Position numbers and translations under genes: made by a program
Shown: positions 41,099 through 61,386 of the stretch, piece by piece
Position numbering within the stretch: the stretch's first letter is position 1
How the letters are laid out: each line of letters begins with the position of its first letter
The notes under the pieces: model-generated
The model's input: the letters and a program-made list of their open reading frames with translations, nothing else
The model's database searches: none
Told to the model about the DNA's origin: nothing
Assembly (NCBI GenBank): GCA_964349305.1
Contig: CAYGFS010000002.1
Coordinates: 425-64,424 of the forward strand
Source: an uncultured Pseudomonadales bacterium
Lineage (GTDB): Bacteria > Patescibacteriota > Microgenomatia > UBA1400 > UBA12108
DNA: 64,000 bases
Direction of reading: 5' to 3'

Positions 41099-43974
41099 AA
41101 TTTCTTCAAAAATCCTGCCATATTGGTTTTGGGTAAACAGTTGTTTTGTGCGACACACCCATTACAAACCTGATTGGCGTCGGTCAAGCAGATGAGGGCT
41201 CCGGCGTCACTAGTCATTATACCAATGTGGCCGGGGGCACCACCGCTGCAGGTTCCCGACGAATTGAAAACAATGGGGTCTCCAGGAGTGGCACCAACAG
41301 TCCCCTGGACGAAACGCCAGCCTGGGGCCACGTTGCCAATATAACTGCAGGCATTGGCTCCTTGAAGAGACCCACCGGCGCAGGCAATAGCGGCTTGGAC
41401 AAACCCAACACATTGTAGATAAGTGAAGCTACTGGCCGAGCGCTGGATCAGACTAATTGATTCTGGGGAGATGGCTTTGGCGGCGAGACAAGAGAGGCCC
41501 TGAGCAATATTGCTGCTCGTGACGCTCTGTCCATAACATTCGGCAAGATATTTGGCGAGACAATTGGCGCAAGAGGCTACGCTGCTACCTGCCGACTTAA
41601 TTTCTGTACCCACCTCGGCACCCGCTGAATCATCGTCGCAGAGGAGTTCGGTTGCGACCTGTTGGAGCGCGGATCCGGCGTCGAGGCGAATTGTGTTCAC
41701 AAGATCACTAATATTGTGGTTATTAACAAAAATCATAATCCCAATAATTGTTAGCGAAAGGAGAATTGGTTGGAGGACCGAGAGCATGAGTAGCGAAATG
41801 GTTGATAAAACAGTTGCAAATGCGGCTGGAATAGCGAGGAACACCGCGCCAATAGTTAACCCTATTTTGGTAACGGCACCACGGAAATCAGCACTACCTA
41901 AATAGTTTTTAATGAAATTCCAACCTAATTTAATTAAGTCAAAAACCATTAATACTCCAAGGACTACAGAGAAAGCTGAAGTTATCCCACCCGCAAGACC
42001 AATCAAGGCAGCTCCAGCTTTTTCACCTAGTCTTGCTAGGGCCTTTCCTCCTATTTGGAGGAGTAAGCGAGTGGCAGTACGGCTAGCTGAGACAGAGGCA
42101 TATTTAAAGGCTGACCCAGCTCCGAGTTTGGTGGCGATGGCCGCAGATCTTTCAAGTGCCCATTTTGTGCTTGATCCCCAGGCCGACCTGAATGTTTCAA
42201 AGAGAGCACCATTAACCGTAAAGTCACCTTGCTTATATTGGTTGAGATTCCAGTGGACAAATTTACCTAGAGGGTTTTTCCAGGACGAAGTACGGGCAAT
42301 AGCCTTGAGGGTTGTGACCTTTTTCCACTCGTCGATGCGATCATAGATCCAGGGAACAATGCGAAAGAGGGGGATTTGAGTTTTTCCTATCCTGATTGTA
42401 AAATTTTCGGCTAATTTGTCATACCACTCAACGGTTGCACGAACCCCCTTGTTCCAAGGCAAGTTTTCGTCAAACTCGACCCATTTGTCAAAGAATTTGG
42501 TTTTGAGTTCATATAGGTGAGACCTATTATTTTCAACCCAACGACCAAAGCGAGTGCGGTTGATGAGGCTTTTTTCGTCGAAATCAAGAAATGAATAGGC
42601 ACCGAGATGGTTTTCGTTTTCTCTCAAGCGGCGCGACCAATGAATTTCGAGGTCTTCGGTTTTTTGTTTGTATTCGGAGGTATCTAGTTTGTTTTTATAT
42701 TCGCCTGCTAGCCTATCTTTCTCAGATTGGTACTCTGTCGATAATTTTTCTTTTTCTATTTTTAAATCAGCTTCGGACTTTTCTGTTTTGAAGGGATTGA
42801 TGCCGCGGCGCAATAGATTCCGCTCGCCTAGGGTGAGATGGTGTGACCCAACAAGAACTGACAATTCGTTTTGTCGATATTCGATGGCAAAATCGAGACC
42901 AGATTTTTGCAGTTCGTTTTTAATTGCTTGTAATTGGGTGGTATCAGCATTGATGCGCGAACCAGCCAGATCTACAATTTCGTCGCTTGTGAGCTGGCGA
43001 TTTGTGCTGGCATTGATGGTCTGAATTAGAGCCTTGGCAAGTTTCTTTTTTTCAGTATCGCTAGAAATTGGGAGAATTTGTTGAATTTGCCTATAAATTT
43101 CGTATTCCGTAGCTACCACATCGTTGGTGGCGGCCAAGGCTCTATTTTTGAAATCGTCGATTTCAGCTAGCCTTATGCCGTCTTGAAGGAGTTGCTGTTC
43201 AACGCTTTGGGTAAATTTATTGAGATTAGCTGAAATCTCTTTGTCACCTAGAAGATTAAGATAGGCGGCCTGTTCTGGATATGAGTTACTAATAATTTGA
43301 GTAAGTTTGTGAGAGACTGCTTGGGTGGCCATGTCTTCATCATTCGAATAAGCGTGGGCGGCACCACGAAGCTCTGTAATATTTTGGATAATGATTTGGG
43401 CGAGGACTTGTTGAGATAGATCACGATTTCCAACCGGGACACCAGGAGGAAGAATTTTTTGAAATAAAGCTGGAGAGACACCAAGATTGGAGGCTCGCAG
43501 GAGCTGAGAATATAGTTTGTTGTAGTCATCAATGGCCTTGCCTGCGTCAAATTTTGTCCTTGGAGCTCCAGATTGTTTTTTTTGAGCTTCTCTATAAAGC
43601 GTTAGATTTTGTTGTCTGGCGGTTGTGAATAGTTTGTTGGGATCCCCAATCCGATCTCGATAGATTTCGCTAGCAATAGTGGCGAATTGTTCATACGATA
43701 CTTTGCGCATGAGCTTGATGAGCTGGCCCTTGTCTTTGGTGTAGAGGTGATTGTTGTCTTCTAGCCAGTCCAAAACAAGCTTGGCAGCATCGTCTAGCTT
43801 GATAAATTCTTGAGGCTTGCCGAAGGGAGTGGGCAGTGGGATACCACGCGATCCTTTGCCGAGGCGGGATTGGACTGCCAGGCCAGGGAGCAAATATTCT
43901 TCGATTAAATATTTGTTGACCCCATTATCTTTGATGTAGCTAAAACTTTGGAACTGAGTGGTGTCTATGGACAT
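41095..43974 (-). CDS. T4SS-associated cell-wall hydrolase with C-terminal CHAP domain (PrgK/TcpG-like), ~600-aa N-terminal cytoplasmic domain and a central TM bundle
   Basis: CHAP signature ...QCVGFVQAAIACAG...GNVAPGW......GDPIVFNS.....GHIGIM (catalytic Cys/His spacing). 3-4 TM helices at aa ~640-750. Confidence 0.6.
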   Translation of the reverse strand: MSIDTTQFQSFSYIKDNGVNKYLIEEYLLPGLAVQSRLGKGSRGIPLPTPFGKPQEFIKLDDAAKLVLDWLEDNNHLYTKDKGQLIKLMRKVSYEQFATIASEIYRDRIGDPNKLFTTARQQNLTLYREAQKKQSGAPRTKFDAGKAIDDYNKLYSQLLRASNLGVSPALFQKILPPGVPVGNRDLSQQVLAQIIIQNITELRGAAHAYSNDEDMATQAVSHKLTQIISNSYPEQAAYLNLLGDKEISANLNKFTQSVEQQLLQDGIRLAEIDDFKNRALAATNDVVATEYEIYRQIQQILPISSDTEKKKLAKALIQTINASTNRQLTSDEIVDLAGSRINADTTQLQAIKNELQKSGLDFAIEYRQNELSVLVGSHHLTLGERNLLRRGINPFKTEKSEADLKIEKEKLSTEYQSEKDRLAGEYKNKLDTSEYKQKTEDLEIHWSRRLRENENHLGAYSFLDFDEKSLINRTRFGRWVENNRSHLYELKTKFFDKWVEFDENLPWNKGVRATVEWYDKLAENFTIRIGKTQIPLFRIVPWIYDRIDEWKKVTTLKAIARTSSWKNPLGKFVHWNLNQYKQGDFTVNGALFETFRSAWGSSTKWALERSAAIATKLGAGSAFKYASVSASRTATRLLLQIGGKALARLGEKAGAALIGLAGGITSAFSVVLGVLMVFDLIKLGWNFIKNYLGSADFRGAVTKIGLTIGAVFLAIPAAFATVLSTISLLMLSVLQPILLSLTIIGIMIFVNNHNISDLVNTIRLDAGSALQQVATELLCDDDSAGAEVGTEIKSAGSSVASCANCLAKYLAECYGQSVTSSNIAQGLSCLAAKAISPESISLIQRSASSFTYLQCVGFVQAAIACAGGSLQGANACSYIGNVAPGWRFVQGTVGATPGDPIVFNSSGTCSGGAPGHIGIMTSDAGALICLTDANQVCNGCVAQNNCLPKTNMAGFLKKL

Positions 43975-44022: not shown

Positions 44023-47000
44023 ATGGCGAAGAAAGAGAAAGAACCAAAGGAAGATGGAGAGAATGCCCCGCGTTCTGAGCCAGACAAGCAGTCTCAAGAC
44101 TCTCCCTTGGCATTTTTAGAGCAAATTGCGACATTGTTTAAACTAAGATTGCTAAAGGAAAAACTCGGAGTTGATAAGGTAGACCAAAATAAGCTCGGCG
44201 AATTGCAGATGAAGCTCGGCGGAGATGATGACGAAAAATCAGAGGCTGAAAGTGAGATCAGTAAAATTTATAGGCAAGTAATTGAAGTTGATCAGGCAAC
44301 CTTCCACAAAGAGGCCACGCTTGAAGATTCGTTACAAAAAGCGCTAATTACAGACGACGAGCTTCTAGGTAGGGCGCGACAAATAGATGCGAGAGTGCAG
44401 AGCTTGAGAGGAAAGGGGCCAGCCTCCGTAACAGAAACAGAGGTTGATGCTACGATAGCTGATTTAAATGAAGTTGCGGAAAAACTTGGTTTGGATATTA
44501 AAGTTGATAAAGGAAGGGTAGATAGCTTGGTGCACCAAGAAGTCGGTAAGCTCCATCGACTAAGAGATGAGATACAACTAGTTAGACAAAGGAATGAGAT
44601 CAAAGAAGTAGCCGTAGGCCTACAGGCAAAAATCAAGCGCGACAAAAAAGACGAAATATTAAAAGAGGAAGACTTTAAGGATGTTCCTGATGACTCTAAG
44701 CGGGTAATGAAAGTAAAAAGAGGAAACGAAGACCATCAAAAAGATGCAGATCAATATATAGATAACTTGAAGATAGATTTTACGGGTGATCAGCTAGAAA
44801 GAACTGATGAAGAACATTTGGCGGAGGGTTTTTTAAAATCAAAAGCACAAAACAGGCGGAGACTTAGATATGGAGATGGTTTTGAGGGTATCGCCAGGGC
44901 AGATGAGCTTACTTTTAAGGCTGGACTTATTTACTCAGACAGATTGGTGGATCAAATCGTTAAACGAGCAGTAAGAGGGGTCCCAGCTGGTCCAAGAAGA
45001 GATCTTATTGAACTACAAACTAGGTTGTTGGCAACAACAGGGGTGGTAGAGGCGTGGACGAGTAGAAGGAAAGATTTAACACCCGACGATGTGATTAGAA
45101 TGATTGAACAAAAACTACAACAAGGCCTTGGAAAACAGCCAGAAGTTCTCGAATTTTCTGACGAAACTCTACAAAATTCTTCGTATGATGCGACTCAAAT
45201 ACCCGGCCAACGTCGTCGTGGTAAGGAAAGTGCCGACCTTGATGCCCTACTTGATGGTTGGGGTGTTGATATGGCAAGTGTTACTAGAGCGTATAATGAA
45301 AGGAAAAGAGATTTTGACCAAAGGCCAAATAGGGTGATTGGCAGAGAGCACGCCATCCAATTTGATAAAGAATTCTTGGTTGATTTGGAAGCAATGTATC
45401 CAAACCTAGGTGCGAAAGAGCATGAATTTCTTAAGATTCAGGCAGAGGGGTTATTTGGGAATGAGCATTATAAAATTTTACAAGAGAAAGTTAGAGGCAA
45501 CGATTATGAGGGATACCTAAAATACTTAATGTCGTACTTGTATAAAGTAGGCCTAAGAGAAGGTCAACAAGACTTTCAATTACAAGCCATGATGCGTGAG
45601 GCTAGGACCATCTTAGCCAACGAAGGTCGTAGTGATTTATTGGATATATATAAAGCTTTTGAAAAGACGGCAATCTTTCATGAGGCCTATTTTCAACTGG
45701 ATCGTGAGGGCTATGCAAAGATATTGAATTCTTGGGGAGTAGAGCCACTGCAAGTGTTCAAAAACAAAGAGGCAAACACGCTTAATGTAGAGGTTGCAAA
45801 AAAAGATGGGACTAAACTAAACGATTTAGGTGTTATCAAATATGATGACCTGCTTCAGTCGGGAACATGGTCACATAGACTTATATATGGCGATAAAAGG
45901 GGTAGTGAACTCCATTATGACGAGGAAAAAGTTTATGACGACATGTTGGTCACTTTGCTTTACGGGAGCGAGGAACAGGCGTGCAGAATCAGAGGAACTA
46001 AAGTCATAAATATGGTAACTGGAGCTGAAGTTGCAGATTTGGCTGACAGGCTCGTAGTTGATGGTGACGAGATGAATTTGGAAAGTTTAATAATAGATAG
46101 TAGATACATGGCCGGTATTGCCCACGATATGTGGAGACTGGATGGAAGATGTGCCAATGTGTTGGATGATGTTTCGGTAGGTGGTGCTGTTGGTTTAAAT
46201 AAAGAACTCTTGACGACCTGGAAAATTCGTCGTTATGCAGAAGAATATGGTTTTGTGCCAACCTGGATGCTTGAAGCATTAAGTTTAGATAACTTTATCT
46301 ACGAAATAGAAAACTATAAAGACTTGGTCGGGGCGGGGATGAAAAAATTGTTTAAAGGTAAGGGGGGAGATGGAGCAGAAGTAGCCCAGCTCATTAATGA
46401 TCATATTAAGCGCAGGAGAGTGTTGAGGGGTGAAGAATTTCGGACAAACTACTTGCAGATTGAGGATGTTCGACTGTTATCTAAAAAAACAATGACGCTG
46501 AAGGATGCGGAAATAGAATATGTTCGCAGACAACAACTATTGGGCAACACTGTTGATATAAACGATTCGGCATATAAGGAGCAAATTGGCTTGTTACATA
46601 AAAAGTGGTCAACTAATTTGTTTACGGCTGGCCAGCGAGCTCAGATTGATGCTGTTGATTGGAAGAAGGTTAACGCGGAATATGCGGAGGAATTGGGGGT
46701 GGAGAGCATAGGAGATACTTTTGAAGATTTTATACAAAATTTTTCATTCGGGCGACTGTCCGCCACAGAGAAATTCCGAGGAACCGATCTGAAGGATTAT
46801 GGAGGCTATTTCCTTAAAAGTGGGGCGGTGGTGGACATATTTAAAAGTGGTTTTGCTGGGGGGGCAACAGAAGCAGTGGCTAAAATTTTTGGAACAATGG
46901 AGGGCTACTTGCCTTATGACAGCAGTGGGTTGCGTAGATTTATTATTAAAGAGATGGAAGTGATGTATAGTTGGGATGATAAAAAGTGGTCAGTGGAAGT

Positions 47001-47427
47001 CCCCAAAGAAGAAGTAAGGAAAGGTCCTAACGGGAACTTGATAGACGGAAATATGGATGGGAAGCGACTGCCAAACGGCGAACTGATGATGGATGAAAAT
47101 GGATACTGGGTGAGTGAAAAATCTAGAAAAATGCTTTACGGAGATAGTCTAATAGGGAAGAGTAGAATGCGGAAATCTAGAAATGAAAGAGATATAGAAT
47201 ACGCAGTGTATTCGATGGTGGGGTCTGGAACTATCGATCGAGACACGGTAGAAGAGTTCTTGAATAAGAAATATGGTGGAGTGTTTAAAAATAATAAGTA
47301 CATGGCGAGGGCTTGGAGGTGGATAAAACGAACAGCGTTTTTGGACGATCCCCTCATTTTATTTGAGGCTGCTTGGGAGGATGGGAAGAAATCTTTGGGG
47401 GGATTCTTTAAATACGTGTTTGGCTAG
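44023..47427 (+). CDS. large hydrophilic hypothetical protein (1134 aa), no TM, no NTP-binding motif
   Basis: Long intact ORF with good coding periodicity. Acidic/Lys-rich N-terminus. Sole plus-strand gene in the core T4SS block. Confidence 0.6.
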   Translation: MAKKEKEPKEDGENAPRSEPDKQSQDSPLAFLEQIATLFKLRLLKEKLGVDKVDQNKLGELQMKLGGDDDEKSEAESEISKIYRQVIEVDQATFHKEATLEDSLQKALITDDELLGRARQIDARVQSLRGKGPASVTETEVDATIADLNEVAEKLGLDIKVDKGRVDSLVHQEVGKLHRLRDEIQLVRQRNEIKEVAVGLQAKIKRDKKDEILKEEDFKDVPDDSKRVMKVKRGNEDHQKDADQYIDNLKIDFTGDQLERTDEEHLAEGFLKSKAQNRRRLRYGDGFEGIARADELTFKAGLIYSDRLVDQIVKRAVRGVPAGPRRDLIELQTRLLATTGVVEAWTSRRKDLTPDDVIRMIEQKLQQGLGKQPEVLEFSDETLQNSSYDATQIPGQRRRGKESADLDALLDGWGVDMASVTRAYNERKRDFDQRPNRVIGREHAIQFDKEFLVDLEAMYPNLGAKEHEFLKIQAEGLFGNEHYKILQEKVRGNDYEGYLKYLMSYLYKVGLREGQQDFQLQAMMREARTILANEGRSDLLDIYKAFEKTAIFHEAYFQLDREGYAKILNSWGVEPLQVFKNKEANTLNVEVAKKDGTKLNDLGVIKYDDLLQSGTWSHRLIYGDKRGSELHYDEEKVYDDMLVTLLYGSEEQACRIRGTKVINMVTGAEVADLADRLVVDGDEMNLESLIIDSRYMAGIAHDMWRLDGRCANVLDDVSVGGAVGLNKELLTTWKIRRYAEEYGFVPTWMLEALSLDNFIYEIENYKDLVGAGMKKLFKGKGGDGAEVAQLINDHIKRRRVLRGEEFRTNYLQIEDVRLLSKKTMTLKDAEIEYVRRQQLLGNTVDINDSAYKEQIGLLHKKWSTNLFTAGQRAQIDAVDWKKVNAEYAEELGVESIGDTFEDFIQNFSFGRLSATEKFRGTDLKDYGGYFLKSGAVVDIFKSGFAGGATEAVAKIFGTMEGYLPYDSSGLRRFIIKEMEVMYSWDDKKWSVEVPKEEVRKGPNGNLIDGNMDGKRLPNGELMMDENGYWVSEKSRKMLYGDSLIGKSRMRKSRNERDIEYAVYSMVGSGTIDRDTVEEFLNKKYGGVFKNNKYMARAWRWIKRTAFLDDPLILFEAAWEDGKKSLGGFFKYVFG

Positions 47428-48986
47428 CTTTTGGCCGACATTTCTTTACTACCCGGTGGATGGCTCGTAGTCTGAATAACGCCGGGTTGTTTATATTGAT
47501 CTGTGCCAAATATCTTTGCCTGTCTACGGTATCCGGCCTCTTTTTCGTAGGCACCTACAGCTGATCGGATTGGCCATCCACCGACTTGCCATGCGCCTCC
47601 CAACCCAGCGGCGATCTCTGATGTATATGGAGATTCTTTGACCTGGAGCCAGTCCATGGCCATCTTGGCTGCGGCTGGAGTCATGGTAAAAATAAAAAAT
47701 CCGATGAGAGCCATGATATCGTTGCCCTGGAGATTTGTACCAGTTAGAGTAAAGGGTGGGAGCCACATTTTGCCATCTGCTCCCACAGCAGAATAAAACT
47801 CACTGTTGCTGTTTACCCCAAAGGGATTGGGGTCTCCGAGCGTTGTACCCTTGAAAAGTAGGGAATTGGTGGGATCGCCGACAAGAATGGCTGAAAAGAT
47901 AAACATGGTACCAACAACGGGGAATGGGAGGAGATAGCTGGCGGTTTTTTTGAGCCACTCAGAGAACGCTTTACTGCCTGGCATTGCATTCATAAGCAGC
48001 TGAACAGGAGCTGTAACTGTTTGAACAATCAACATTACGTATGCCTTTACAAGTGTAAGCATAAGTTTGATCATCGTAACTCCGAGCCAAACGCCTGCGA
48101 TCAATGCAGAAGGAGAAACTACCGCGGCTGCCTTACCTAGGAATCCGACGACACCAGTGCCTAAGCCAGAGAGGAGTGAATCAGAAGCGGCTGCGACGGC
48201 CCAGATTACGCTATTGCGGCCATCAAAGATAATGCTCCAAGCCGACTTAGACATGAGCCTACTAATAGCTTTGACAGGACTATCGATAATCCCGACCGTA
48301 TTTAAGAGATATACGATAAAATAAATAATAAAGTACATGATGTCGATCATAAAACCAACGATGGCGTAACTAAAAGTGATGAGGAGGAGGGTGATGAGGA
48401 GGTTGGGGAGGGCGGTTTGGATGGTGATGATAGTTTGGGCGTTTACCTTGGTGCGCAGCATGATCATGATACCAACCACGACAAACATGATGATGTACAG
48501 AGAGTAAGCGAGATTACGAAAAGCCTTCCAGAATGGTAGAAAGGGTGCCATAGCTCCATAACCGGTTCCTTGGGCGAGGGCAGGCTGGGCAAGGCGTGGG
48601 AGTCCGATATTTTCCCTGAGATCCGCAATATATTCTTGACTAGAGATTTGATTTTGAAAAAGCATAGCAACATATTTGCTGGTTTGAGGAAGCAGGGCTG
48701 ACTTTACGCACGGAGTACCATCGGCATTTTGGATACCAAAAAGGGCAATGTTGGGAGCTGCAATATTGCTGATGGCAAATCTTCCAGCTGGAATGTCACC
48801 GCCCTCTTCTTCAAAGGCACTCAAATCGCAGTTGTCGGGTAACGGGACCTCATATTTGCCGAGATTCATAGGAGACTCTCCCTTTAAGTCGCTCAGTGAA
48901 AACGCCCTAGTTGGAGAAACATCGGCAAATAAAAGGCGAGCACCTATTACTAAGATGGCCAGAAGATATAAGGAGAACTTTTTCAT
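47424..48986 (-). CDS. polytopic membrane protein, VirB6/TrbL/PrgH-like candidate
   Basis: Signal peptide (MKKFSLYLLAILVIGARLLFA). About 7 TM helices. Periplasmic loops. Location within the T4SS cluster. Confidence 0.45.
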   Translation of the reverse strand: MKKFSLYLLAILVIGARLLFADVSPTRAFSLSDLKGESPMNLGKYEVPLPDNCDLSAFEEEGGDIPAGRFAISNIAAPNIALFGIQNADGTPCVKSALLPQTSKYVAMLFQNQISSQEYIADLRENIGLPRLAQPALAQGTGYGAMAPFLPFWKAFRNLAYSLYIIMFVVVGIMIMLRTKVNAQTIITIQTALPNLLITLLLITFSYAIVGFMIDIMYFIIYFIVYLLNTVGIIDSPVKAISRLMSKSAWSIIFDGRNSVIWAVAAASDSLLSGLGTGVVGFLGKAAAVVSPSALIAGVWLGVTMIKLMLTLVKAYVMLIVQTVTAPVQLLMNAMPGSKAFSEWLKKTASYLLPFPVVGTMFIFSAILVGDPTNSLLFKGTTLGDPNPFGVNSNSEFYSAVGADGKMWLPPFTLTGTNLQGNDIMALIGFFIFTMTPAAAKMAMDWLQVKESPYTSEIAAGLGGAWQVGGWPIRSAVGAYEKEAGYRRQAKIFGTDQYKQPGVIQTTSHPPGSKEMSAKS

Positions 48987-49008: not shown

Positions 49009-49539
49009 TTAAGGGCGCAATTTAAGAGAATCGATCCAGTACTGTGAGGTGGCGCGGACGTAATCTTTGTCGCCGTAAACGAAGATGAGTTTTTTGGGGT
49101 CGATATTTTGACCCTCGAGCATCTCCATGGCTTTGAGATAGCTTTCTTTAAAAGCGGTGACGTTGGGATTCTTTTTTTCGTCGAGCTCGTTTTTATTGAC
49201 GTAAGAGAGTCCAGAGATACCTAAGTAGACTATTTCGGCAGGATCGCTGTCTAGCCGGGTGATATTGATGGTTGTAACTATACCCACAGAGGTTTTGAAC
49301 GATTCGAGGTAGAGAGGGAGTTTGTTTTCGATCGACGAAACATAAATCATGGCTTGCTCGCGCTTTTCTTTGGAGAGGTTGACGGGGACGAGCCCACTGA
49401 GCTGGCTGGAGTCAGAAATACTAGTGGTGGGCGGACTGACATTTTTCTTCGGGGAGAGGACGATGACCAAGATAAGGATAAAGAGACTAGTTCCGATGGC
49501 GATAAGGACAGATTTGTTTTTGAGTAAGGATAAATTCAT
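49009..49539 (-). CDS. bitopic membrane protein (N-terminal TM + 140-aa external domain); VirB8-like candidate
   Basis: TM SVLIAIGTSLFILILVIVLS. T4SS context. Confidence 0.35.
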   Translation of the reverse strand: MNLSLLKNKSVLIAIGTSLFILILVIVLSPKKNVSPPTTSISDSSQLSGLVPVNLSKEKREQAMIYVSSIENKLPLYLESFKTSVGIVTTINITRLDSDPAEIVYLGISGLSYVNKNELDEKKNPNVTAFKESYLKAMEMLEGQNIDPKKLIFVYGDKDYVRATSQYWIDSLKLRP

Positions 49540-49550
49540 ATTTAATGTGT

Positions 49551-52376
49551 TTAAAACCCAGGTAGCTTGATAATATCACCGGCGATAAGGCGAAGGAGTG
49601 AGACTGAGAAAATGAGGAAGAGGAGGCCGGTGAGGGCAGAGAAGAAGAGATCACGGCCAGCCTGGAGCTTTTTGGCATCGTCTCCGGCGGTCATGATTTG
49701 GATGGTGCTGATGAGCATGGTGACGAGGGCGATGGCGCCGGCTATGCCCGCAACAAAACTGAGAAGGGCAGAGATAAAGGCGTCTCTCGTGAAGGGAAGA
49801 CAGCCAAGGGCGGTAGCGAGGGACTCTGATCCGCAAGTCTCGGGAGTAAAAGCACCCGCGGCGGCGGTGAGCTGATCGTCTGAGGCCACGGTTTGGCCGG
49901 GATTGGCTGGGGGAGGAGAGTAGGTGGGACTGCGAGCAGCGAGGTATTCGTGAACCACGAGGGCGGCGGTAAAGGCGCCAGGTCTGTCATTGCCGTATGG
50001 TTTGGGCGGGATACACGGAGTGAAATCATCACAATATAAGAGGAACATGTTGGTGCGTTTGCTATCGAGGAGGTTGGTGGCGTAGGGATCGTCGGCGCCG
50101 ATAAATTCGCGCGGACAGCCACCATAGGGAATGGGGGCGGGGAAGCCAACCTGGCAGTTGCTGTTGCCGCCGCCGTTGAAGTTGGAGATGGCGGCTACTA
50201 GTTTTTCGGTGTTGTCGATCGGGTGGCGGAGAATGGTTTTGCCGGTAATGATGGAGGTATCAACCAACGACTGTCCCCCCTCGAGTGGCTGGCCATTGGC
50301 GTTACTGCGCTTTTCTGGTCCTCCTAGGCTAGTAAAGTATGCGGTGGCTTCGGAGAAATGGATACCAGCCAAAATTTCGCAGGGCACCCCCGTTTCACCT
50401 TCGGCGGTTCCATAGGATTCTTCGAGGGCAGGATTGAGCTCACCATTTACAAACATGGCGGAGCTTAAGACGATTTGTTTAGCTGACTCAAGAGGAGCTT
50501 TCCAGGGAGAGTCGGCAATGATCTGGGCAAATTTGGTGCCGTCGCATTTACCCACCGCTATAGTTTGGTCGGTATTGTCAAAACAGCCGATACGGGTACC
50601 TAGAGCATAGGCCTGAATACTGGTGTCGAGCTGGGCAGAGAACATAGAGTCGTCACAGGCATAGTAACCAAGGCGACGTCTGGCATCGGCTGGTCCCATG
50701 TTTTTGCCGGCGTAGAGAAGCTCGGCTTCATCATCGACGGTATTGCTGAGATCAGCGTTAAAATCTTTGACGCTCTCTAACTCAGAAAGACTATCTCTTG
50801 TGTCGTAGGAAAATGATTGGAGGTCGGAGATGGACTGTCCCATGGCTTCGGGGACGGTGATCAGATGATATTTAACGATCTCAACTTCGTCGATGCGACC
50901 GCCATCACCCCACCCATTCCAAAAGAGTTCGAGGAACCAAGAGCTGTTAGCTTTGGGGTAGGCACCACCTGGGTCTTTGGTGAGTTTGGGTTGGAGGACA
51001 TAGTCGGGACAAGTTTTACCAGGACCCAGAAAAGTGTCTGGCTCGAGATAGTCGATCCACTGAGTAAAGTATTTCCAGTTTGACCAGGGCACATATTTGA
51101 GACAACCGTCTTTCATTTCGTTGTAGAGCCGATCGTGAATTTTGCTGGGGACGGCGTTTTCGCTGGCAGAACCGGCAAAACGGATGAGTGGGTTGGTGGC
51201 GGCAAGGTCTTTGAAAATTTTCACTGCCTGATCGAGTGGATAGGTGACAAATAGCTCGTACATGGAGGCGTTATATGCCTGAGAAATGGATGGATCATAG
51301 TACAAACCCCTGCGGACTCCGACCAACATTTCTTCAGGAACCCAACATTTGTCAGGGTTTTTGGGACAACAGACATTCCAAACACAGATAGTTGGGCGGA
51401 CAAAGCCCTGGCGGAAGGAGGGGGGGTAAAGTGGAACAGTGGCAAAATCTTTGGCCCACTCAGCCGGATCTTTTTTAGAGAGTTCGGCGGCGACAGTACG
51501 GACAACATATTCTTTTTCCTGGGCAACATCGCTGACGGCGTCGAGATTCCCCCCGGTTAAGAAAAAGTCATCGTCGGCTTCAACGATGGCCAACCCAGCT
51601 CCCGACATACCATCGGGGAGTTCGTCGTGAATGTCGATGAGTGACTTGGTCATATTGATGTCTTTGTATCCCCAGTCTACCCAGCCGAGCGGCCATTCCC
51701 CGGTAATGTTGAGGGTAGACTTGGTCTGTTTGGCGCGCTTGAGAACCATTAATTGGAGAATCGCTTTGTCTCCCTGATCGAGCATGAGCTGGTGAGAGCC
51801 GTAAGTAATCGGGTTTTCGGCTAGACCCACAAAACCGTAGGCGTTGGCTTCGTTTTGGAGCTTGGGATAGACGAGTTCTTCGCCCGAAAAATCGGTACCT
51901 TTGACGGTACGGCTAATACCTGGGCGCTGCTTGTAGCTGCATTTACCCTTCGTAGTCCCCTTAAGCTCTGAATTAGCATGTGCGGAACAACTGCCGTTGG
52001 GTCCTGACTCAGCATCTTTAACATATTCTCCAGAATTGCGGTTACAGATGGCTACAATTCCACCGTCACATCCATCTACCTCTTCACCCGTTTGGTTGTC
52101 GACGGCACAAACATAATCCCGCTGATCCCCTCCATCACAGATCATGTAGGGATCATAGTCGCGACTACGATCGCGATTTTCAAAAATTTTGAGAGCGGCA
52201 GGTCGAATATATTTGAACAAAGGGAAGAAAACCTCAAAATGATATTCTTCGTCTGGATTACCTTCGACCGAGAAGGGAGCAAATGGCTCGATTGATTCGG
52301 CCTGGGCGAGCGTAGGAGAGAGAAGAGCGAAGAGAGAAGAGAAAAAGATTATAAATAGGAGCAGTAGCCTTTTCAT
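49551..52376 (-). CDS. secreted Cys-rich ~940-aa protein whose C-terminal ~90 aa form a VirB2-like T4SS-pilin domain (adhesin-pilin fusion)
   Basis: Signal peptide MKRLLLLFIIFFSSLFALLSPTLAQA (start 1 nt after the upstream pilin stop). C-terminus ...FVAGIAGAIALVTMLISTIQIMTAGDDAKKLQAGRDLFFSALTGLLFLIFSVSLLRLIAGDIIKLPGF is ~60% identical to the stand-alone pilin at 59296-59703. Confidence 0.6.
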   Translation of the reverse strand: MKRLLLLFIIFFSSLFALLSPTLAQAESIEPFAPFSVEGNPDEEYHFEVFFPLFKYIRPAALKIFENRDRSRDYDPYMICDGGDQRDYVCAVDNQTGEEVDGCDGGIVAICNRNSGEYVKDAESGPNGSCSAHANSELKGTTKGKCSYKQRPGISRTVKGTDFSGEELVYPKLQNEANAYGFVGLAENPITYGSHQLMLDQGDKAILQLMVLKRAKQTKSTLNITGEWPLGWVDWGYKDINMTKSLIDIHDELPDGMSGAGLAIVEADDDFFLTGGNLDAVSDVAQEKEYVVRTVAAELSKKDPAEWAKDFATVPLYPPSFRQGFVRPTICVWNVCCPKNPDKCWVPEEMLVGVRRGLYYDPSISQAYNASMYELFVTYPLDQAVKIFKDLAATNPLIRFAGSASENAVPSKIHDRLYNEMKDGCLKYVPWSNWKYFTQWIDYLEPDTFLGPGKTCPDYVLQPKLTKDPGGAYPKANSSWFLELFWNGWGDGGRIDEVEIVKYHLITVPEAMGQSISDLQSFSYDTRDSLSELESVKDFNADLSNTVDDEAELLYAGKNMGPADARRRLGYYACDDSMFSAQLDTSIQAYALGTRIGCFDNTDQTIAVGKCDGTKFAQIIADSPWKAPLESAKQIVLSSAMFVNGELNPALEESYGTAEGETGVPCEILAGIHFSEATAYFTSLGGPEKRSNANGQPLEGGQSLVDTSIITGKTILRHPIDNTEKLVAAISNFNGGGNSNCQVGFPAPIPYGGCPREFIGADDPYATNLLDSKRTNMFLLYCDDFTPCIPPKPYGNDRPGAFTAALVVHEYLAARSPTYSPPPANPGQTVASDDQLTAAAGAFTPETCGSESLATALGCLPFTRDAFISALLSFVAGIAGAIALVTMLISTIQIMTAGDDAKKLQAGRDLFFSALTGLLFLIFSVSLLRLIAGDIIKLPGF

Positions 52377-52377
52377 G

Positions 52378-52659
52378 CTAGAAGCCAAACTTAAATTGAG
52401 TGACGTCAACACCAGTGATATTTTTGACGACAACTAAAACTAGCCAGGAGATGATGGCCAGGGCGATCCCGCCGACAGCAAGAGTAATGGTTTGTTTGCC
52501 AGCTGCCATGCCTTTGGCATCACCCGCCGAGGTGAGGATTTTGAATCCGCCGGTGAGAATCATAATAAAAGCAACGAGGCCAATGAGGGGGATCATGGCT
52601 TCGAGGATGTTACCAAAATATTCGGGGATGGAAGACAGCTCGGCGGCAGTTTCGTTCAT
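52378..52659 (-). CDS. VirB2/TrbC-like T4SS pilin paralog
   Basis: Two hydrophobic helices separated by ...LTSAGDAKGMAAGKQTIT.... TATAAT box 7 nt upstream of the ATG. Confidence 0.6.
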   Translation of the reverse strand: MNETAAELSSIPEYFGNILEAMIPLIGLVAFIMILTGGFKILTSAGDAKGMAAGKQTITLAVGGIALAIISWLVLVVVKNITGVDVTQFKFGF

Positions 52660-52663
52660 GGGT

Positions 52664-52861
52664 ACGATTATAGCAAAGGTTGGGGGAATGTCCGACTAAT
52701 CCTGATTTCTATTTTTTGTTTTTGTGAAGCTCGCTTCAGGAAAACGCGTAGTCTGGGGATTTACGCATTTTCTTGATAGGCTCGACCCTACAATGCACAA
52801 AAAACATAAACCAAGATTTTACCTGGAATTTTTATCATATCCATCTAGAGGGATATATGGT
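52664..52861. repeat. repeated intergenic module, second copy of 38586-38777
   Basis: ...ATTTTTTGTTTTTGTGAAGCTCGCTTCAGGAAAA... and ...CTACAATGCACAAAAAACATAAACCAAGATT blocks are shared. Confidence 0.75.
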
Positions 52862-53269
52862 TTAGTAGGCTTTGGGCGGGGTGATGTTGCCGTCTAAGAT
52901 GTTGATGCCGAAGAAGTAGGAGATGATCAACATGATGGCCCAGGCGGACGCGACGACAGCTAGACCCACGAGGGCAGCAGTAATGCGGTCGCGAGCTTCT
53001 TGGGTTTTACCCTTGTCACCACCACTGGTGATCCACTGGATACCACCCCAAATGAGGAACATAAAGACGAGCAGAGCAGAGACCACAATGGCTCCCTGGA
53101 CGACGCCTTGGATGAGGGTTCCGATATTGGTGATGGCGACGTTTTCTGGCTTGCCGATGGAGAGATCGGGGGCACCGGGGGCGGCGGCTTGGACTTTTGA
53201 GATGAATTGATCGAACATAATGGTTTCTCCTTTATTTATTAGTGTAGTGAGTATTTTATCATTTAGCAA
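52862..53269 (-). CDS. VirB2/TrbC-like T4SS pilin paralog
   Basis: ...IWGGIQWITSGGDKGKTQEARDRITAALVGLAVV... Confidence 0.65.
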   Translation of the reverse strand: MLNDKILTTLINKGETIMFDQFISKVQAAAPGAPDLSIGKPENVAITNIGTLIQGVVQGAIVVSALLVFMFLIWGGIQWITSGGDKGKTQEARDRITAALVGLAVVASAWAIMLIISYFFGINILDGNITPPKAY

Positions 53270-53567
53270 GGCCTATGCCAAAGAAGTAATCGAGGAGCAA
53301 ATAAACCGCCCAAGCAGAGGCGACGATAGCGAGTCCGATAATCCCGTTGGTGATTTTGGCTCTGGCTTCTTCGAGCTTGCCCTTGTCGCCACCACTCATA
53401 ATCCACTGGACGCCGCCGTAGATGAGATACATAAAAGTGGCAAGGCCAGCGACGAGGATGATGGCCGAGAATACCTTGCTGACAAAACTGCCAAGATCAG
53501 TGTTGATGGCTACCCGAGATTGGGTTTCGTCGCCGATATTGACACTAAAAGATCCGCTGTTTGCCAT
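53259..53567 (-). CDS. VirB2/TrbC-like T4SS pilin paralog
   Basis: ...IYGGVQWIMSGGDKGKLEEARAKITNGIIGLAIV... Confidence 0.65.
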   Translation of the reverse strand: MANSGSFSVNIGDETQSRVAINTDLGSFVSKVFSAIILVAGLATFMYLIYGGVQWIMSGGDKGKLEEARAKITNGIIGLAIVASAWAVYLLLDYFFGIGLAK

Positions 53568-53571
53568 AAGT

Positions 53572-53907
53572 TTATCCTGCTGTAGGCCAACTAATATTTA
53601 AGAGATTCATGCCGATCGCGGTTTCGATAAATTTGATGATGACATAGGAAGCGGCGAGGATGGCGAGTCCAACCAGTCCCTGGGTAATTTTGCCCCGAGC
53701 CTCTTCGATTTTGCCTTTGTCGCCGCCAGCAGTGATCCAAGTAAGACCACCCTGGAGGAAGTAGAGGAGGAAGGCTAGACCGCCGACCAAAATGATCGTT
53801 TGCCAAAGAGTAGCGACGGTAATGGCGAACTGCTTGGGTGAGTCGTCGGGCGAGGAGCCACCAGGGACGGCGACGTTAGTAATTTGAGCAATGAGTCGGT
53901 TGTTCAT
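53572..53907 (-). CDS. VirB2/TrbC-like T4SS pilin paralog
   Basis: ...LQGGLTWITAGGDKGKIEEARGKITQGLVGLAIL... Confidence 0.65.
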   Translation of the reverse strand: MNNRLIAQITNVAVPGGSSPDDSPKQFAITVATLWQTIILVGGLAFLLYFLQGGLTWITAGGDKGKIEEARGKITQGLVGLAILAASYVIIKFIETAIGMNLLNISWPTAG

Positions 53908-53909
53908 AT

Positions 53910-54272
53910 TTAATTGACCTTGATATTGTTAATGAGACTGCCGGGGTTGAGGATGTCGATTCCGAGGGCCTTGCCGACAATCCAGACGATGGCATATGAG
54001 ACGGCAATGACGATGATGCCAGTGGCACCGCCCGTCATCATGCCCTTGGCTTTGTCGATCTTGCCTTTGTCACCACCAGCCGTGATCCAATTGAGGCCGC
54101 CCAACAGGAAGTAAAGAGTGAAGGCGATCCCGGCCACGACAGTCAAAACCACTAAAACGTTACTAATGAGCTTTTCAACGGCACTGGTTGATCCCTCGAT
54201 GCCACCACCTGGCTGATAGCCTCCCGGGGTGGTAATTTGCTGGAAACCGATGTCGGCGATGAGTTTGGACAT
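53910..54272 (-). CDS. VirB2/TrbC-like T4SS pilin paralog
   Basis: ...LLGGLNWITAGGDKGKIDKAKGMMTGGATGIIVI... Confidence 0.65.
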   Translation of the reverse strand: MSKLIADIGFQQITTPGGYQPGGGIEGSTSAVEKLISNVLVVLTVVAGIAFTLYFLLGGLNWITAGGDKGKIDKAKGMMTGGATGIIVIAVSYAIVWIVGKALGIDILNPGSLINNIKVN

Positions 54273-54274
54273 AA

Positions 54275-54616
54275 TTAAATACTCCCTGGGCCGGTAATTT
54301 TAGGTGACAGAATTGCGGTGGCGCTGCCGAAGAGGAGGTACGAGACGATCCCAGTAACGGCCGCAGCAGCCACCATGACTACGAGCCCAATGAGGGACAT
54401 GTTGATTTGGGCGGTAGCCGCCTCAATCTTTTTGGTGTCACCGGCGGAAGTAACATAGCTAAACCCGGCAATCATGAGGTTGAAAAAAGCAAAAATACCG
54501 GCACCTGCAAAGATGATGGTGATGACATTGGTGATAAAAGTGGGAAGACCTGAACCAACGTCGCCGTATCCAGTGAGAGGTGACTTGATGGTTTCGCCTA
54601 ACAAATCGTTTGCCAT
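54275..54616 (-). CDS. VirB2/TrbC-like T4SS pilin paralog (divergent)
   Basis: ...MIAGFSYVTSAGDTKKIEAATAQINMSLIGLVVM... Confidence 0.6.
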   Translation of the reverse strand: MANDLLGETIKSPLTGYGDVGSGLPTFITNVITIIFAGAGIFAFFNLMIAGFSYVTSAGDTKKIEAATAQINMSLIGLVVMVAAAAVTGIVSYLLFGSATAILSPKITGPGSI

Positions 54617-54620
54617 ATGT

Positions 54621-54929
54621 TTAGTTTAAGATAGATACTCCGGTAATGACCTGGATAATTTGGATTATCCAGTAGGAACCAAAGAGTACCAACATGCCCA
54701 TTATAGCAGAGGTGATAACTTTGGTGCCATCGGCGATTTTGTCTTTGTTGCCGGCGTTGGCTATGATGGTGAATCCACCGAAGAGAATCATGAAGAAAAT
54801 AACAACTCCGCCGGCGATATAGACGTTGGGGAGAATGTTGTTGACTAGACTCCCTGCTCCAGAATATTCTGAGTTGGCGGAGGAACCTTGGAAGAGCAAT
54901 TTATCGCCAAGATTGAAGGATGTTGCCAT
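54621..54929 (-). CDS. VirB2/TrbC-like T4SS pilin paralog (divergent; first gene of the array)
   Basis: ...LFGGFTIIANAGNKDKIADGTKVITSAIMGMLVL... Confidence 0.6.
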   Translation of the reverse strand: MATSFNLGDKLLFQGSSANSEYSGAGSLVNNILPNVYIAGGVVIFFMILFGGFTIIANAGNKDKIADGTKVITSAIMGMLVLFGSYWIIQIIQVITGVSILN

Positions 54930-55057
54930 GGGAAAATTATAGCACCTTGATTACTCATCAATCCAAACAATTTTGCAGTACTCACAGCTTTCTGGATAGA
55001 CCAGATGAGACGCTCCGTGCTTAAAATTATTTGGACTTGATGAGTTTTTGGTAGAAT
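54930..55057. promoter_or_regulatory. divergent promoter region between the pilin array and the ECF sigma gene, with extended -10 (TGGTAGAAT)
   Basis: TTGGAC-N15/16-TGgTAGAAT on the plus strand, ending 1-7 nt before the sigma-factor start codons (GTG 55058 / ATG 55064). Confidence 0.4.
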
Positions 55058-58976: not shown

Positions 58977-59276
58977 TTAAGAAAGTATGCTCACCTTAAA
59001 TATCACTTGGAGGATCTGGGCGATCCAGTAGGAGAGGAAGATGACAAAGAATCCAACGAGCGAGCTGGTGACCATCTTCTTACCTTTTTCCTGAGATTCC
59101 TTGTCCGCTGCGCCAGTCAGCATAGTGAAGCCGCCCATCACGAGCATGCCAAAGAGGATCAGACCAGCAACAGAGAGGAGAGTGGGGAGAAAACTGTTGA
59201 TAATGCCGCCAATACTGTCGCTGCCGCTATTTAAGCCAATGGCTTGGTTATAGTCTCCGTAGGGTATGTCGGCCAT
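58977..59276 (-). CDS. VirB2/TrbC-like T4SS pilin paralog
   Basis: ...VMGGFTMLTGAADKESQEKGKKMVTSSLVGFFVI... Confidence 0.6.
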   Translation of the reverse strand: MADIPYGDYNQAIGLNSGSDSIGGIINSFLPTLLSVAGLILFGMLVMGGFTMLTGAADKESQEKGKKMVTSSLVGFFVIFLSYWIAQILQVIFKVSILS

Positions 59277-59295: not shown

Positions 59296-59703
59296 TTAAA
59301 ATCCTGGTAATTGAATGATATCACCAGCAATAATTTTGAGGAGGGTGACCGAAAAAATAATAAAGAGTAATCCGGTGATGGCGCCGGTAAAGAGTTCTTT
59401 GCCTTTTTTGACTTGCTCGGCATTGTCGCCACCCGTCATGATTTGAATGGTGGCGGCCAGCATGATGACTAGCGAGATGGCGCCTGCGGTGCCGGCAAGA
59501 AAAGTAAGTAGCTGAGCCGTGAATCCCTGAGTGTCAACACTCATACAGCCAAGGGCGGTTTCGATCCCTTTGCCGCCATTGCATTCTTGGGGGCCTGCCG
59601 CGTGAGCAAAATAGGGAAAGATGAGACCCGCCGCCGCTAAAGCTAGAGCGGGCAAGTATGTTAGGATGGTAGCATGCCTGTGCTCTGGAAAAAACTTTTT
59701 CAT
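59296..59703 (-). CDS. VirB2/TrbC-like T4SS pilin paralog (closest relative of the C-terminus of the 960-aa protein)
   Basis: Signal peptide ending AHAAGPQ. ...LAATIQIMTGGDNAEQVKKGKELFTGAITGLLFIIFSVTLLKIIAGDIIQLPGF. Confidence 0.65.
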   Translation of the reverse strand: MKKFFPEHRHATILTYLPALALAAAGLIFPYFAHAAGPQECNGGKGIETALGCMSVDTQGFTAQLLTFLAGTAGAISLVIMLAATIQIMTGGDNAEQVKKGKELFTGAITGLLFIIFSVTLLKIIAGDIIQLPGF

Positions 59704-61386
59704 ATTGGATTAATTGCCATCTTTGTAACGGCTTTTATTGTATCATACCAGACAGCTAGCGCCGAAAGTTTGGAGGAGATCGAAAAGCAAATAGCCGACC
59801 TGCAGCAGCAAATGCAGCAGTCGGTGGCGGCCACGACTCCGCTTGAGTCAGAAGTGGCCAAGCTAAGTAAACAACTGGGTGGAATACAGGCTCAAATAAG
59901 GGATTCAGAAGTTAGACTCCAGACACTAGAAGCTAGTATTAAGGACAGAGACCAAAAAATTAAATCACAGTATGTTGTACTGGCAGCGAAGGTGCGAGAC
60001 TTGTACAAAAAATCGCGGCACTACTCACCACTCCTCGTATTTGCGTCGTCGAGTAGTGCGAGTGAACTCACCAGAGGGTTGGCATATAAGGCGGCGGGGG
60101 CGGATGAAGACAAAAACCTGATTGTAAACATTACCACCGATATTTTGAGTTTAGAAGCGGATAAGAAGAAAATTGAAGCAGATAAAATTAGGCTCGCGGG
60201 ACTCCAAGCAAAACTAGATACGCAGAAAGCCTTTTTTGAAAAAGAGATTGCAGGGGCAAAGAAGTGGCAGGCAGAGCTGTCGGGGAAAATTGCGACGCTT
60301 ACGGCAAAACAACAAGCAATTTTGTCGGAGAAATCGGGAACGTTTCAGACTACGGTAGGGGACGTACCTCTCGCGGATGACCCGGCGTCGCGTCCGGATT
60401 ATAACCCTGGATTTTCACCTGCTTTTGCGATGTTTAGCTTTGGGGCGCCGCATTTTAAAGGAATGAGTCAGTACGGAGCCTTTGGTCGTGCCAAGTCAGG
60501 TCAGACATATGAACAAATACTGAAAGCCTACTATGGCGGAGGGATAGAGATTAAAGACCACAATCCAGACGTACAAATAAAGGTTGATGGATATGGGAGT
60601 TTTAGTTTAGAGGATTATGCGAAGAGGATTTATGAAATGCCGGGGAGTTGGGGGGATGAGGGTGGGATGGAAGCACTCAAAGCACAGGCGATTGCGGCGA
60701 GGAGTTATGCCCTGGCGCGGACTAATAACGGAGCTACCTCGATTTGTGCGACCGAAGCATGTCAGGTATTTAAGCCGAGCCCTAAGGGCGGTAAATGGGA
60801 AGAAGCGGTCAATGCCACTAGGGGTAAAGTGGTATATGCTGGTGGATCGCCGTTGTCGACCTGGTATGCTTCTACCTCGGGCGGTTACCAGGAGTCGTAT
60901 AGCGCGAATGGTCATTCTACCCCGGGATTTTGGGATACTCCGTCAGGCCAAGCGGGCTGGACTGGGCAGGCCTACGAAAAAACAGCCGGGAGTCCGTGGT
61001 TTTATAAGGCTTGGTACAAATCGAGATCAGGAGACGCCTGTGGCAGAACTCACCCATGGCTGAATAGTGAAGAAATGGCAGATATTTTAAACGCTTGGCA
61101 CGTGTTGTTTAGTGGCGGCGGCGACGCTAGCCGAGTGACGCCGGAGTCTGGGTGTTGGGGAGGCAACCCCTACACTAAAGCCGATTTGCGCGGAATAGGT
61201 GGGTTTAGCAGTGTATCAGGAGTGAGCGTGACGTATGCGAACAACGGGGTCACGGCCAACGTGACGTTCCAGACGAATAAGGGGTCAACCACGATGTCGG
61301 GGGCCGATTTCCGGAAAGCTTTTAACCTGCGGGCACCGGGGAGGATATCGCTCAAATCGGGGTTGTTTAATGTGGAGAAAAAATAG
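59674..61386 (+). CDS. SpoIID/LytB-domain cell-wall hydrolase/amidase enhancer with N-terminal TM and coiled-coil region
   Basis: SpoIID motif ...GMSQYGAFGRAKSGQTYEQILKAYYGG. N-terminal signal-anchor and Gln/Lys-rich coiled coil (PcsB-like). Start may be an internal GTG, given the 30-bp overlap with the pilin gene. Confidence 0.65.
   Translation: MPVLWKKLFHIGLIAIFVTAFIVSYQTASAESLEEIEKQIADLQQQMQQSVAATTPLESEVAKLSKQLGGIQAQIRDSEVRLQTLEASIKDRDQKIKSQYVVLAAKVRDLYKKSRHYSPLLVFASSSSASELTRGLAYKAAGADEDKNLIVNITTDILSLEADKKKIEADKIRLAGLQAKLDTQKAFFEKEIAGAKKWQAELSGKIATLTAKQQAILSEKSGTFQTTVGDVPLADDPASRPDYNPGFSPAFAMFSFGAPHFKGMSQYGAFGRAKSGQTYEQILKAYYGGGIEIKDHNPDVQIKVDGYGSFSLEDYAKRIYEMPGSWGDEGGMEALKAQAIAARSYALARTNNGATSICATEACQVFKPSPKGGKWEEAVNATRGKVVYAGGSPLSTWYASTSGGYQESYSANGHSTPGFWDTPSGQAGWTGQAYEKTAGSPWFYKAWYKSRSGDACGRTHPWLNSEEMADILNAWHVLFSGGGDASRVTPESGCWGGNPYTKADLRGIGGFSSVSGVSVTYANNGVTANVTFQTNKGSTTMSGADFRKAFNLRAPGRISLKSGLFNVEKK

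Follow-up and report, generated by a model that had tools for sequence, protein, structure and literature searches.

A VirB2-like pilin module joined to a secreted ectodomain with a lysozyme-like part in the pilin array of a Patescibacterial type IV secretion locus

The type IV secretion systems (T4SS) of Patescibacteria are of the monoderm type and often lie next to the origin of replication. They are associated with arrays of 2–11 VirB2-like genes, which are especially common in Microgenomatia and whose copies share on average 25% and at most 54% identity; VirB1 homologues are mostly missing from these loci, and other glycosidases may fill their role (PMC12102498, the survey of Quinonero-Coronel et al. 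2025). In Southlakia epibionticum, the one Patescibacterium tested genetically, the T4SS and the pilin array of the SEML1_0006-0019 locus are essential for epibiotic growth (PMC10633639, Wang et al. 2023). A review covers this essential array within the T4SS cluster (PMC12857230), and the function of Patescibacterial T4SS and pilin arrays is described as completely unknown (PMC11665869). Here we analysed such an array in a 64-kb stretch of an uncultured bacterium (64,000 nucleotides of contig CAYGFS010000002.1, assembly GCA_964349305.1; hereafter the window). The family under study comprises the PF18895-type modules of the window, that is, nine small open reading frames (ORFs) and the C-terminus of one large protein of 941 aa. 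This large protein joins a pilin module to a secreted, cysteine-rich ectodomain, and we propose, at a probability of about 55%, that it serves to hold a wall-cutting enzyme of VirB1 type at the pilin apparatus of the T4SS.

All ten domains match the PF18895 (T4SS_pilin) model in a Pfam HMM search, with E-values ranging from 6.9e-10 to 3.8e-3. The nine small genes and the large ORF are all encoded on the minus strand, seven of the nine lying head to tail from 54929 to 52378. These are array pilin 1 (54621..54929, 102 aa, 19.4 bits), array pilin 2 (54275..54616, 113 aa, 29.5 bits), array pilin 3 (53910..54272, 120 aa, 27.8 bits), which carries a GGLNWITAGGDKGK loop, array pilin 4 (53572..53907, 111 aa, 22.3 bits), array pilin 5 (53259..53567, 102 aa, 34.4 bits), array pilin 6 (52862..53218, 118 aa from ATG, 37.6 bits) and array pilin 7 (52378..52659, 93 aa, 25.7 bits). 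A second pair, 4 kb from the array, consists of a 99-aa pilin (58977..59276, 39.3 bits), which is a paralog of array pilin 1 at 40% identity, and a 135-aa pilin (59296..59703, 20.1 bits); the module fused to the large protein (49551..52376) scores 17.7–18.5 bits. Five domains (array pilins 2, 3, 5 and 6 and the 99-aa pilin) are above the gathering cut-off of 26.6 bits, and the remaining five, at 17.7–25.7 bits, were assigned to the family because of their paralogy and orthology with the passing ones. Hydropathy analysis reveals two hydrophobic segments in each of the ten, as in PF18895 proteins, which have two helices and a short charged loop. An HMM built from the family retrieves exactly these ten ORFs, and no others, among the 757 six-frame ORFs of the window. 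Chance ORFs are ruled out, since the pilin genes are conserved across genomes.

An earlier note on this DNA had grouped the nine small genes with the C-terminus of the large protein and had named PF18895 and TrbC/VirB2 as the models to search with. The single family and the PF18895 match are borne out by these data; the TrbC/VirB2 match is not, since none of the ten domains matches PF04956 (TrbC/VirB2) at E ≤ 1. PF04956 is precomputed on only one homolog of the 135-aa pilin. The paralogs are divergent: in the ten-way alignment they are 18–33% identical to the first copy. Identity within the window peaks at 56% (103 aa aligned, E 3e-37), between the large-protein C-terminus and the 135-aa pilin, in agreement with the roughly 60% over some 90 aa read by the earlier note; the top pair among the other small pilins, which we call class A below, reaches 49% over 99 aa. 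Two comparison genomes also carry this locus: L001, a Microgenomates assembly from NCBI, and L002, a JGI contig of 964 kb. Once they are added, this class-A maximum rises to 58% over 77 aa between paralogs. The loop GG..W[IM]TSGGDKGK, thought at first to be shared by all copies, is found in strict form (GG..W[IM]T[SA]GGDKGK) in four of the ten and in degenerate forms in the other six.

The locus is thus a member of the published Patescibacterial VirB2-like arrays, though not a demonstrable member of the TrbC/VirB2 family PF04956. Arrays have been described as 2–11 PF18895 genes in tandem or one non-pilin gene apart, in genomes with a VirB4 of Patescibacteria type; the window has seven tandem genes with the fused gene adjoining. 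Like the described arrays, it consists of tandem PF18895 genes of low inter-copy identity in a monoderm-type T4SS region near dnaA of a Microgenomatia genome; unlike them, since the papers treat arrays as small pilins, it comprises two structural classes, one of which carries large N-terminal ectodomains, including a lysozyme-like one. With the VirB2, TrbC and TraA pilins of diderm T4SS it shares the small helix-loop-helix hairpin, the charged loop and the T4SS locus, together with a predicted N-out/C-out topology; it differs from them by the absence of any PF04956 or PDB sequence match, by the eight of ten proteins without a signal peptide, and by its many paralogs in place of one major pilin.

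The array looks like a fixed set of genes. In the comparison genomes, the reciprocal best match of every one of the seven array genes occupies the corresponding position, with 63–90% identity: 63–70% for array pilin 1, 65–79% for array pilin 2, 70–78% for array pilin 3, 81–89% for array pilin 4, 75–90% for array pilin 5, 87–88% for array pilin 6 and 67–73% for array pilin 7. In comparison, paralogs within a genome are at most 56% identical, mostly 25–45%, and housekeeping enzymes of the same genome pairs are 65–72% (L001) and 75–85% (L002) identical. Judged by these identities, the pilins appear to evolve no faster than housekeeping genes. Recent tandem duplication is ruled out by the positional orthologs at 63–90% against paralogs at 56% or less. 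Orthologs more similar than paralogs, together with conservation at housekeeping level, point to an old set of individually constrained, distinct subunits, which are presumably non-redundant, and contradict an antigenic-variation expansion in this lineage.

This bears on the reading of the earlier note, in which the large protein serves a conjugative or attachment pilus as its built-in tip adhesin and the nine small pilins are copies of the major pilin diversified for host attachment. The survey cited above also proposes antigenic variation or host adaptation for the arrays (PMC12102498). However, array genes with 1:1 positional orthologs, conserved like housekeeping genes (65–85%), have diversified neither recently nor fast, and the diversification by copy expansion envisaged in the earlier note does not hold here. 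Other genes of the locus do evolve faster: against L001 and L002, the large protein is 50–58% identical, and two membrane proteins of 176 and 520 aa encoded downstream of it are 43–63% identical. The large protein therefore changes faster than the housekeeping genes, as exposed proteins often do, a point in favour of an adhesin to which we return with its ectodomain. Of its two orthologs there, the one in L001 is the more similar (58%, against 50% in L002), whereas housekeeping genes and pilins are nearer to L002; recombination or uneven evolutionary rates are possible causes of this reversal.

Seven individually conserved paralogs in fixed order resemble the parts of a defined complex rather than a single polymer subunit. 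They would fit an alternative that we regard as possible but rather doubtful, in which PF18895 proteins are small membrane or conduit subunits of the monoderm-type T4SS, like the 'pilin-like' proteins of Mycoplasma conjugative elements, and the seven paralogs form a hetero-oligomeric channel or stalk with no extended pilus. Monoderm-type T4SS are generally without pili (PMC10633639; PMC12102498), and the domains of the window repeatedly match the NCBIfam model NF045849 ('Mbov_0395 family pilin-like conjugal transfer protein'). These matches are nevertheless sub-threshold, at 12–31 bits against a cut-off of 40, and such a channel is compatible with our best explanation of the large protein.

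The ten proteins fall into two classes. Class A is made of the seven array pilins and the 99-aa pilin (64% identical to its L001 ortholog); in the window these eight have no cysteine and no signal peptide, and a hydrophilic N-terminal tail of 17–50 aa precedes the first of their two transmembrane helices. Class B is made of the 135-aa pilin, whose gene is paired with that of the 99-aa pilin, and of the large-protein module. It is defined by two invariant cysteines flanking a short beta-hairpin (Cys41 and Cys53 in the 135-aa pilin), two long helices and a conserved ...AGDII.LPGF end. The cysteine hairpin is of disulfide type and would lie immediately outside the membrane. The two class-B proteins are the only two of the ten with a signal-peptide-like hydrophobic N-terminus; the leader first ascribed to all copies is thus present in these two, the other eight starting with the hydrophilic tail. 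In L001 and in a further genome, L005, however, the ortholog of array pilin 4 starts with a signal peptide, as does the array pilin 5 ortholog of L001 (L001 8425-9201; L005 8536-8916); the versions of the window and of L002 are without one and begin near the predicted mature N-terminus. Signal peptides on class-A orthologs fit an N-out topology.

Class B extends far beyond this locus. The 135-aa pilin has 163 homologs, 57–91% identical among the 120 listed, and the helix-loop-helix core is nearly invariant over 29 aligned homologs. Its signal-peptide region opens with an unusually conserved MKKxFPxRxHISILTYL start, a pattern that hints at a dedicated recognition or processing step. Its L001 ortholog is longer, at 265 aa, with an extra cysteine-rich insert, and in two other Patescibacterial loci the class-B gene that heads the array and adjoins a SpoIID-like gene encodes 380 or 648 aa. 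When 1.84 billion representative proteins were searched with a profile of the 135-aa family, 7471 scored at E ≤ 1e-3, of which 5173 reached E ≤ 1e-10. We derived architecture statistics from 142 of the 150 best-scoring representative matches: the median length is 296 aa, 76% exceed 200 aa (figures inflated by clustering at 50% identity, which favours long, variable proteins), 105 of the 142 have a signal-like N-terminus, and the median cysteine content is 2.8 per 100 aa. Among the matches listed, the module is in most cases at or close to the C-terminal end. PF18895 matches 98 of 108 long class-B proteins, whose N-terminal parts are almost free of Pfam matches, and cluster look-ups returned no name for the large protein of the window or for ten other long class-B proteins. 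A class-B module ending a secreted cysteine-rich ectodomain clearly appears, from these comparisons, to be a common architecture, not one peculiar to this gene.

We know of no described VirB2-family pilin with a large fused ectodomain, and found no description of one in the searchable literature, whose coverage is incomplete, so that this is absence of evidence only. The fusion in the window is genuine. Firstly, the large protein has 87 homolog clusters, mostly full length and from Microgenomates and Woesebacteria, and a frameshift artefact is ruled out by the same architecture in most of them. Its closest relatives are hypothetical proteins of Candidatus Woesebacteria and Microgenomates. Secondly, the synteny around the fusion gene is identical in L001, L002 and L005. 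Thirdly, its C-terminus matches the 135-aa pilin at the E-value of 3e-37 given above. The protein is organised into distinct parts, in line with the large secreted cysteine-rich protein with a pilin domain that had been recognised in the earlier note. With 22 cysteines in total, it consists of a signal-peptide-like segment, a cysteine-rich N-terminal region without known fold (residues 27-613; 50538..52298, minus strand as for all parts) bearing an invariant EWPLGWVDWGY motif, a divergent lysozyme/lytic-transglycosylase-like domain (residues ~614-815; 49932..50537), a proline-rich linker (residues 816-845; 49842..49931) and the class-B pilin module (residues 846-941; 49554..49841). AlphaFold modelled the whole chain (41 homologs) at a mean pLDDT of 82 and the ectodomain alone (65 sequences) at 91. 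In the model, the module forms a beta-hairpin (852-861) spanned by Cys848 and Cys859, two long helices (864-896 and 901-935) and the LPGF end, and the linker has a pLDDT below 50 and a mean column identity of 0.17. The length of 960 aa first given to this ORF is reached only from an upstream TTG overlapping the preceding gene; from the ATG at 52376, which indeed lies 1 nt past the stop of array pilin 7, it is 941 aa. Array pilin 7 is translationally coupled to the large gene.

The lysozyme/lytic-transglycosylase-like fold of the ~200-aa C-terminal part of the ectodomain is well supported, and it is the only recognised part of the ectodomain. Among the proteins considered next to the ectodomain are FlgJ and the wall hydrolase of a Tn916-like conjugative element. 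Within the lysozyme-like part, the stretch GVPCEILAGIHFSE676 can be matched by eye to MltE GVDPQLITAIIAIES and Slt70 EIPQSYAMAIARQES, whose catalytic motifs are of the type G-V-P-x-x-L-x-A-I-x-x-x-E-S, with the catalytic Glu closing a helix. E676 ends helix 666-676 of the model and is kept in 60 of 65 sequences, from which we infer it to be the candidate catalytic residue. The conservation of the ectodomain is even, with mean identities of 0.44–0.51 and many invariant cysteine, tryptophan, histidine and aspartate residues, which looks more like an enzyme or a structural part than a variable adhesin, as far as sequence comparison can tell.

These features leave the tip adhesin improbable. A pilin module joined to a large secreted ectodomain, of which ~590 aa without known fold could bind something, would suit such a role. 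But neither Pfam nor structure comparison found an adhesin-type domain in the large protein; the sole recognised domain is lysozyme-like, conservation is even at about 45–50% with its many invariant residues, and orthologs without a pilin module exist. The proposal of a built-in tip adhesin thus has no direct support. Should the large protein prime or cap a filament, its role would conceptually be that of the VirB5 pilus-tip proteins of diderm T4SS, with which we found no similarity of sequence or fold; VirB5, moreover, is without a pilin module.

A parallel is provided by the peptidoglycan hydrolases of T4SS, namely VirB1 and, in monoderm systems, PrgK, TraG of pIP501, TcpG and CwlT. As in these, a lysozyme-superfamily domain is encoded in a T4SS locus, and the protein is secreted and probably held at the membrane. 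Unlike them, the domain is too divergent for SLT models, ~590 aa without known fold stand ahead of it, no CHAP or amidase domain was found in the large protein, and anchoring is by a pilin module at the C-terminus, not by a transmembrane helix at the N-terminus. By analogy only, the arrangement also recalls the modular type IV pilins PilB and PilC of Streptococcus sanguinis (PMC8179133, PMC9934059), in which a pilin module directing assembly is combined with a functional module and the filament displays its activity. Those belong to the type 4 filaments, an unrelated superfamily whose pilins have an N-terminal alpha-1 helix and a signal peptide of class III. The large protein has instead an ordinary signal-peptide-like segment and a C-terminal pilin module; the functional module is C-terminal in the streptococcal proteins and N-terminal to the VirB2-like hairpin here.

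Taken as a tether for a VirB1-like enzyme, the modular pilin may work as follows. The large protein is composed of a ~790-aa cysteine-rich ectodomain, a flexible proline-rich linker and the pilin module. The ectodomain would be exported by Sec, and the hairpin would insert in the manner of VirB2-type pilins, both termini lying outside and the charged loop facing the cytoplasm. The module would then bring the large protein into the membrane pilin pool at the T4SS, where it may be built into a pilus-like conduit or docked beside it. Either arrangement would place VirB1-like cell-wall cutting where the conduit crosses peptidoglycan, be it the cell's own or the host's. The strong conservation and wide reuse of the class-B module favour a specific assembly role, whereas unfused orthologs favour a simple tether.

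Peptidoglycan hydrolases of monoderm T4SS are membrane-anchored, and it is conceivable, although we consider it unlikely, that the hairpin merely anchors the ectodomain in the membrane of the producer near the T4SS, so that the enzyme opens the producer's wall, as PrgK, TraG and CwlT do, and never enters a filament. The lysozyme-like domain agrees with this, a flexible 30-aa linker suits a tether, and the unfused orthologs show that the core function does not require the pilin module. The VirB1 homologues of monoderm T4SS are, in addition, larger two-domain peptidoglycan-degrading enzymes (PMC12102498). Yet the hairpin is far better conserved than a plain anchor requires: the core of the 135-aa pilin is near invariant, and in the large protein the mean identity is 0.57 over the module but 0.45–0.5 over the ectodomain. 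The same module is, moreover, encoded nearby as a stand-alone pilin, and thousands of secreted proteins reuse it, which suggests that it has a specific role in interaction or assembly.

Several observations weigh against an enzyme tethered to a pilin apparatus. On the enzyme side, the alignment of E676 with MltE and Slt70 was made by eye, and in the window protein the residues past E676 deviate from the family consensus. Pfam searches with three subregions of the large protein returned only PF18895, and for the enzyme-like subregion nothing even at E ≤ 10. When the 600-815 profile was aligned by hhalign to the single sequences of E. coli Slt70 and MltE, the result was not significant, with one short spurious alignment of another motif; Foldseek with the full model gave no significant match in the PDB, the best being a g-type lysozyme at E 1.1. 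A PDB sequence search with the profile of the large protein likewise gave zero matches at E ≤ 1. On the pilin side, a PDB sequence search with the pilin profile retrieved nothing meaningful, only a chance transmembrane helix, and in structure comparison the hairpin, whose fold agrees with that of one solved archaeal conjugation pilin, resembles solved conjugative pilins no better than generic helical hairpins. In the literature covered, no Patescibacterial T4SS pilus is reported, and the review goes no further than a 'potential to elaborate conjugative pili' (PMC12857230). Finally, distant orthologs of 747-780 aa (Microgenomates group GW2011, Collierbacteria) end right after the ectodomain, without linker or pilin module, which implies that the ectodomain can act without the module and that the module may be a mere tether. 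There, the order of genes is seven pilins, the ectodomain gene, genes for proteins of 173 and 508 aa, a large gene on the opposite strand, a gene for a 939-aa protein, Big_5 and PrgI. The ectodomain protein is thus, independently of the module, a conserved component of the T4SS locus. Because these Collierbacteria-type orthologs in the same slot are without a pilin module, the fusion is an optional, lineage-specific tether: the class-B module was either gained on the branch of the Woesebacteria-like genomes or lost on the other one.

The genomic setting places the family in a T4SS. The nearest T4SS core gene, a PrgI/VirB3-like gene (38778-39788, minus strand; Pfam PrgI, with TraC_F_IV as a weak match among those of the core region), lies ~7 kb from the array. 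It is accompanied by a TrsD-like gene (37944-38582, minus strand), found in the Pfam search of T4SS core genes, and by a VirB4-like ATPase gene (34250-37858, minus strand; Pfam P-loop_TraG, AAA_10, Intein_splicing and LAGLIDADG_3). The latter is split by an intein with a LAGLIDADG homing-endonuclease domain. The small proteins are therefore encoded in a type IV secretion locus, a point in favour of the earlier note's interpretation. dnaA and dnaN (31415-34102, plus strand) directly adjoin the T4SS genes, which fits the origin-proximal location reported for Patescibacterial T4SS loci (PMC12102498); the locus is a chromosomal, origin-proximal, monoderm-type T4SS of a Microgenomatia (Woesebacteria-like) Patescibacterium.

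The two membrane-protein genes downstream of the large gene belong to the same operon, in conserved synteny. They encode a 176-aa bitopic protein (49009..49539, minus strand) with one N-terminal transmembrane segment and a 520-aa polytopic protein (47424..48986, minus strand) that has six or more hydrophobic segments in addition to its signal peptide. Neither has a Pfam match; by topology and architecture only, they are VirB8-like and VirB6-like, respectively. A 1134-aa cytoplasmic protein with no predicted membrane segment or Pfam match is encoded beyond them (44023-47427, plus strand), on the strand opposite to the T4SS genes. Its position is syntenically conserved, being filled by 1093-aa proteins in L001 and L002 and by proteins of 1151-1175 aa in L005 and L006; compared with those of L001 and L002, the 1134-aa protein shows no detectable similarity. 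Its neighbour, a 959-aa protein (41095-43974), is only 29–32% identical to its counterparts; these two are the truly fast-evolving genes of the locus. On the other side of the array, divergent to the class-B pilin gene, a 570-aa protein (59674-61386, plus strand) has a coiled-coil N-terminus and a SpoIID domain, of a peptidoglycan-cleaving family. A SpoIID-like gene lies beside the class-B gene in all loci whose stretch reached it (L001, L005, L007 and L008), distant ones included; the L002 stretch is too short to show it.

Concerning the start sites and transcription of the array, the ORF of array pilin 6 extends to an upstream TTG (52862-53269, 135 aa), and its ATG at 53218 is preceded by an AAGGAG ribosome-binding site; the start is most likely this ATG, the TTG version being probably too long. 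TGCTATAAT boxes, of the extended -10 type, are located at 54936-54944 and 52667-52675 (minus strand), ending 6–7 nt 5' of the ATGs of array genes 1 and 7, so that array pilin 7 has its own promoter-like box; L001, L002 and L005 have TATAAT- or TATACT-like boxes at comparable spacing (5–7 nt) 5' of the ATG. Since promoter-like boxes stand 5–7 nt 5' of the ATGs, this suggests two leaderless transcription units, one with array genes 1-6 and the other with array gene 7, the large gene and the two membrane-protein genes.

The pilin array itself has already been published (2023, 2025); the modular class-B pilin and its putative enzyme cargo are new and would offer testable leads. Speculatively, and with low confidence, the class-B hairpin could be a general C-terminal assembly and display module of Patescibacteria that loads thousands of secreted cysteine-rich ectodomains onto a pilus-like structure of the T4SS or docks them there; the essential T4SS would then be a modular scaffold bringing enzymes and binding domains to the host surface, and the 941-aa protein the first T4SS pilin with a wall-cutting enzyme. 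For the family, an array that looks like a fixed set of seven distinct, constrained subunits suggests a defined hetero-assembly rather than antigenic variation, and a class-B pilin that recurs as a C-terminal module on many secreted proteins suggests that the apparatus may display or position cargo domains. For the organism, the predicted lysozyme-like cargo domain occurs in a group where the VirB1-type wall hydrolase is reported missing; if this enzyme does ride on the pilin apparatus, it would offer a possible route for breaching the wall of the cell itself or that of its host.

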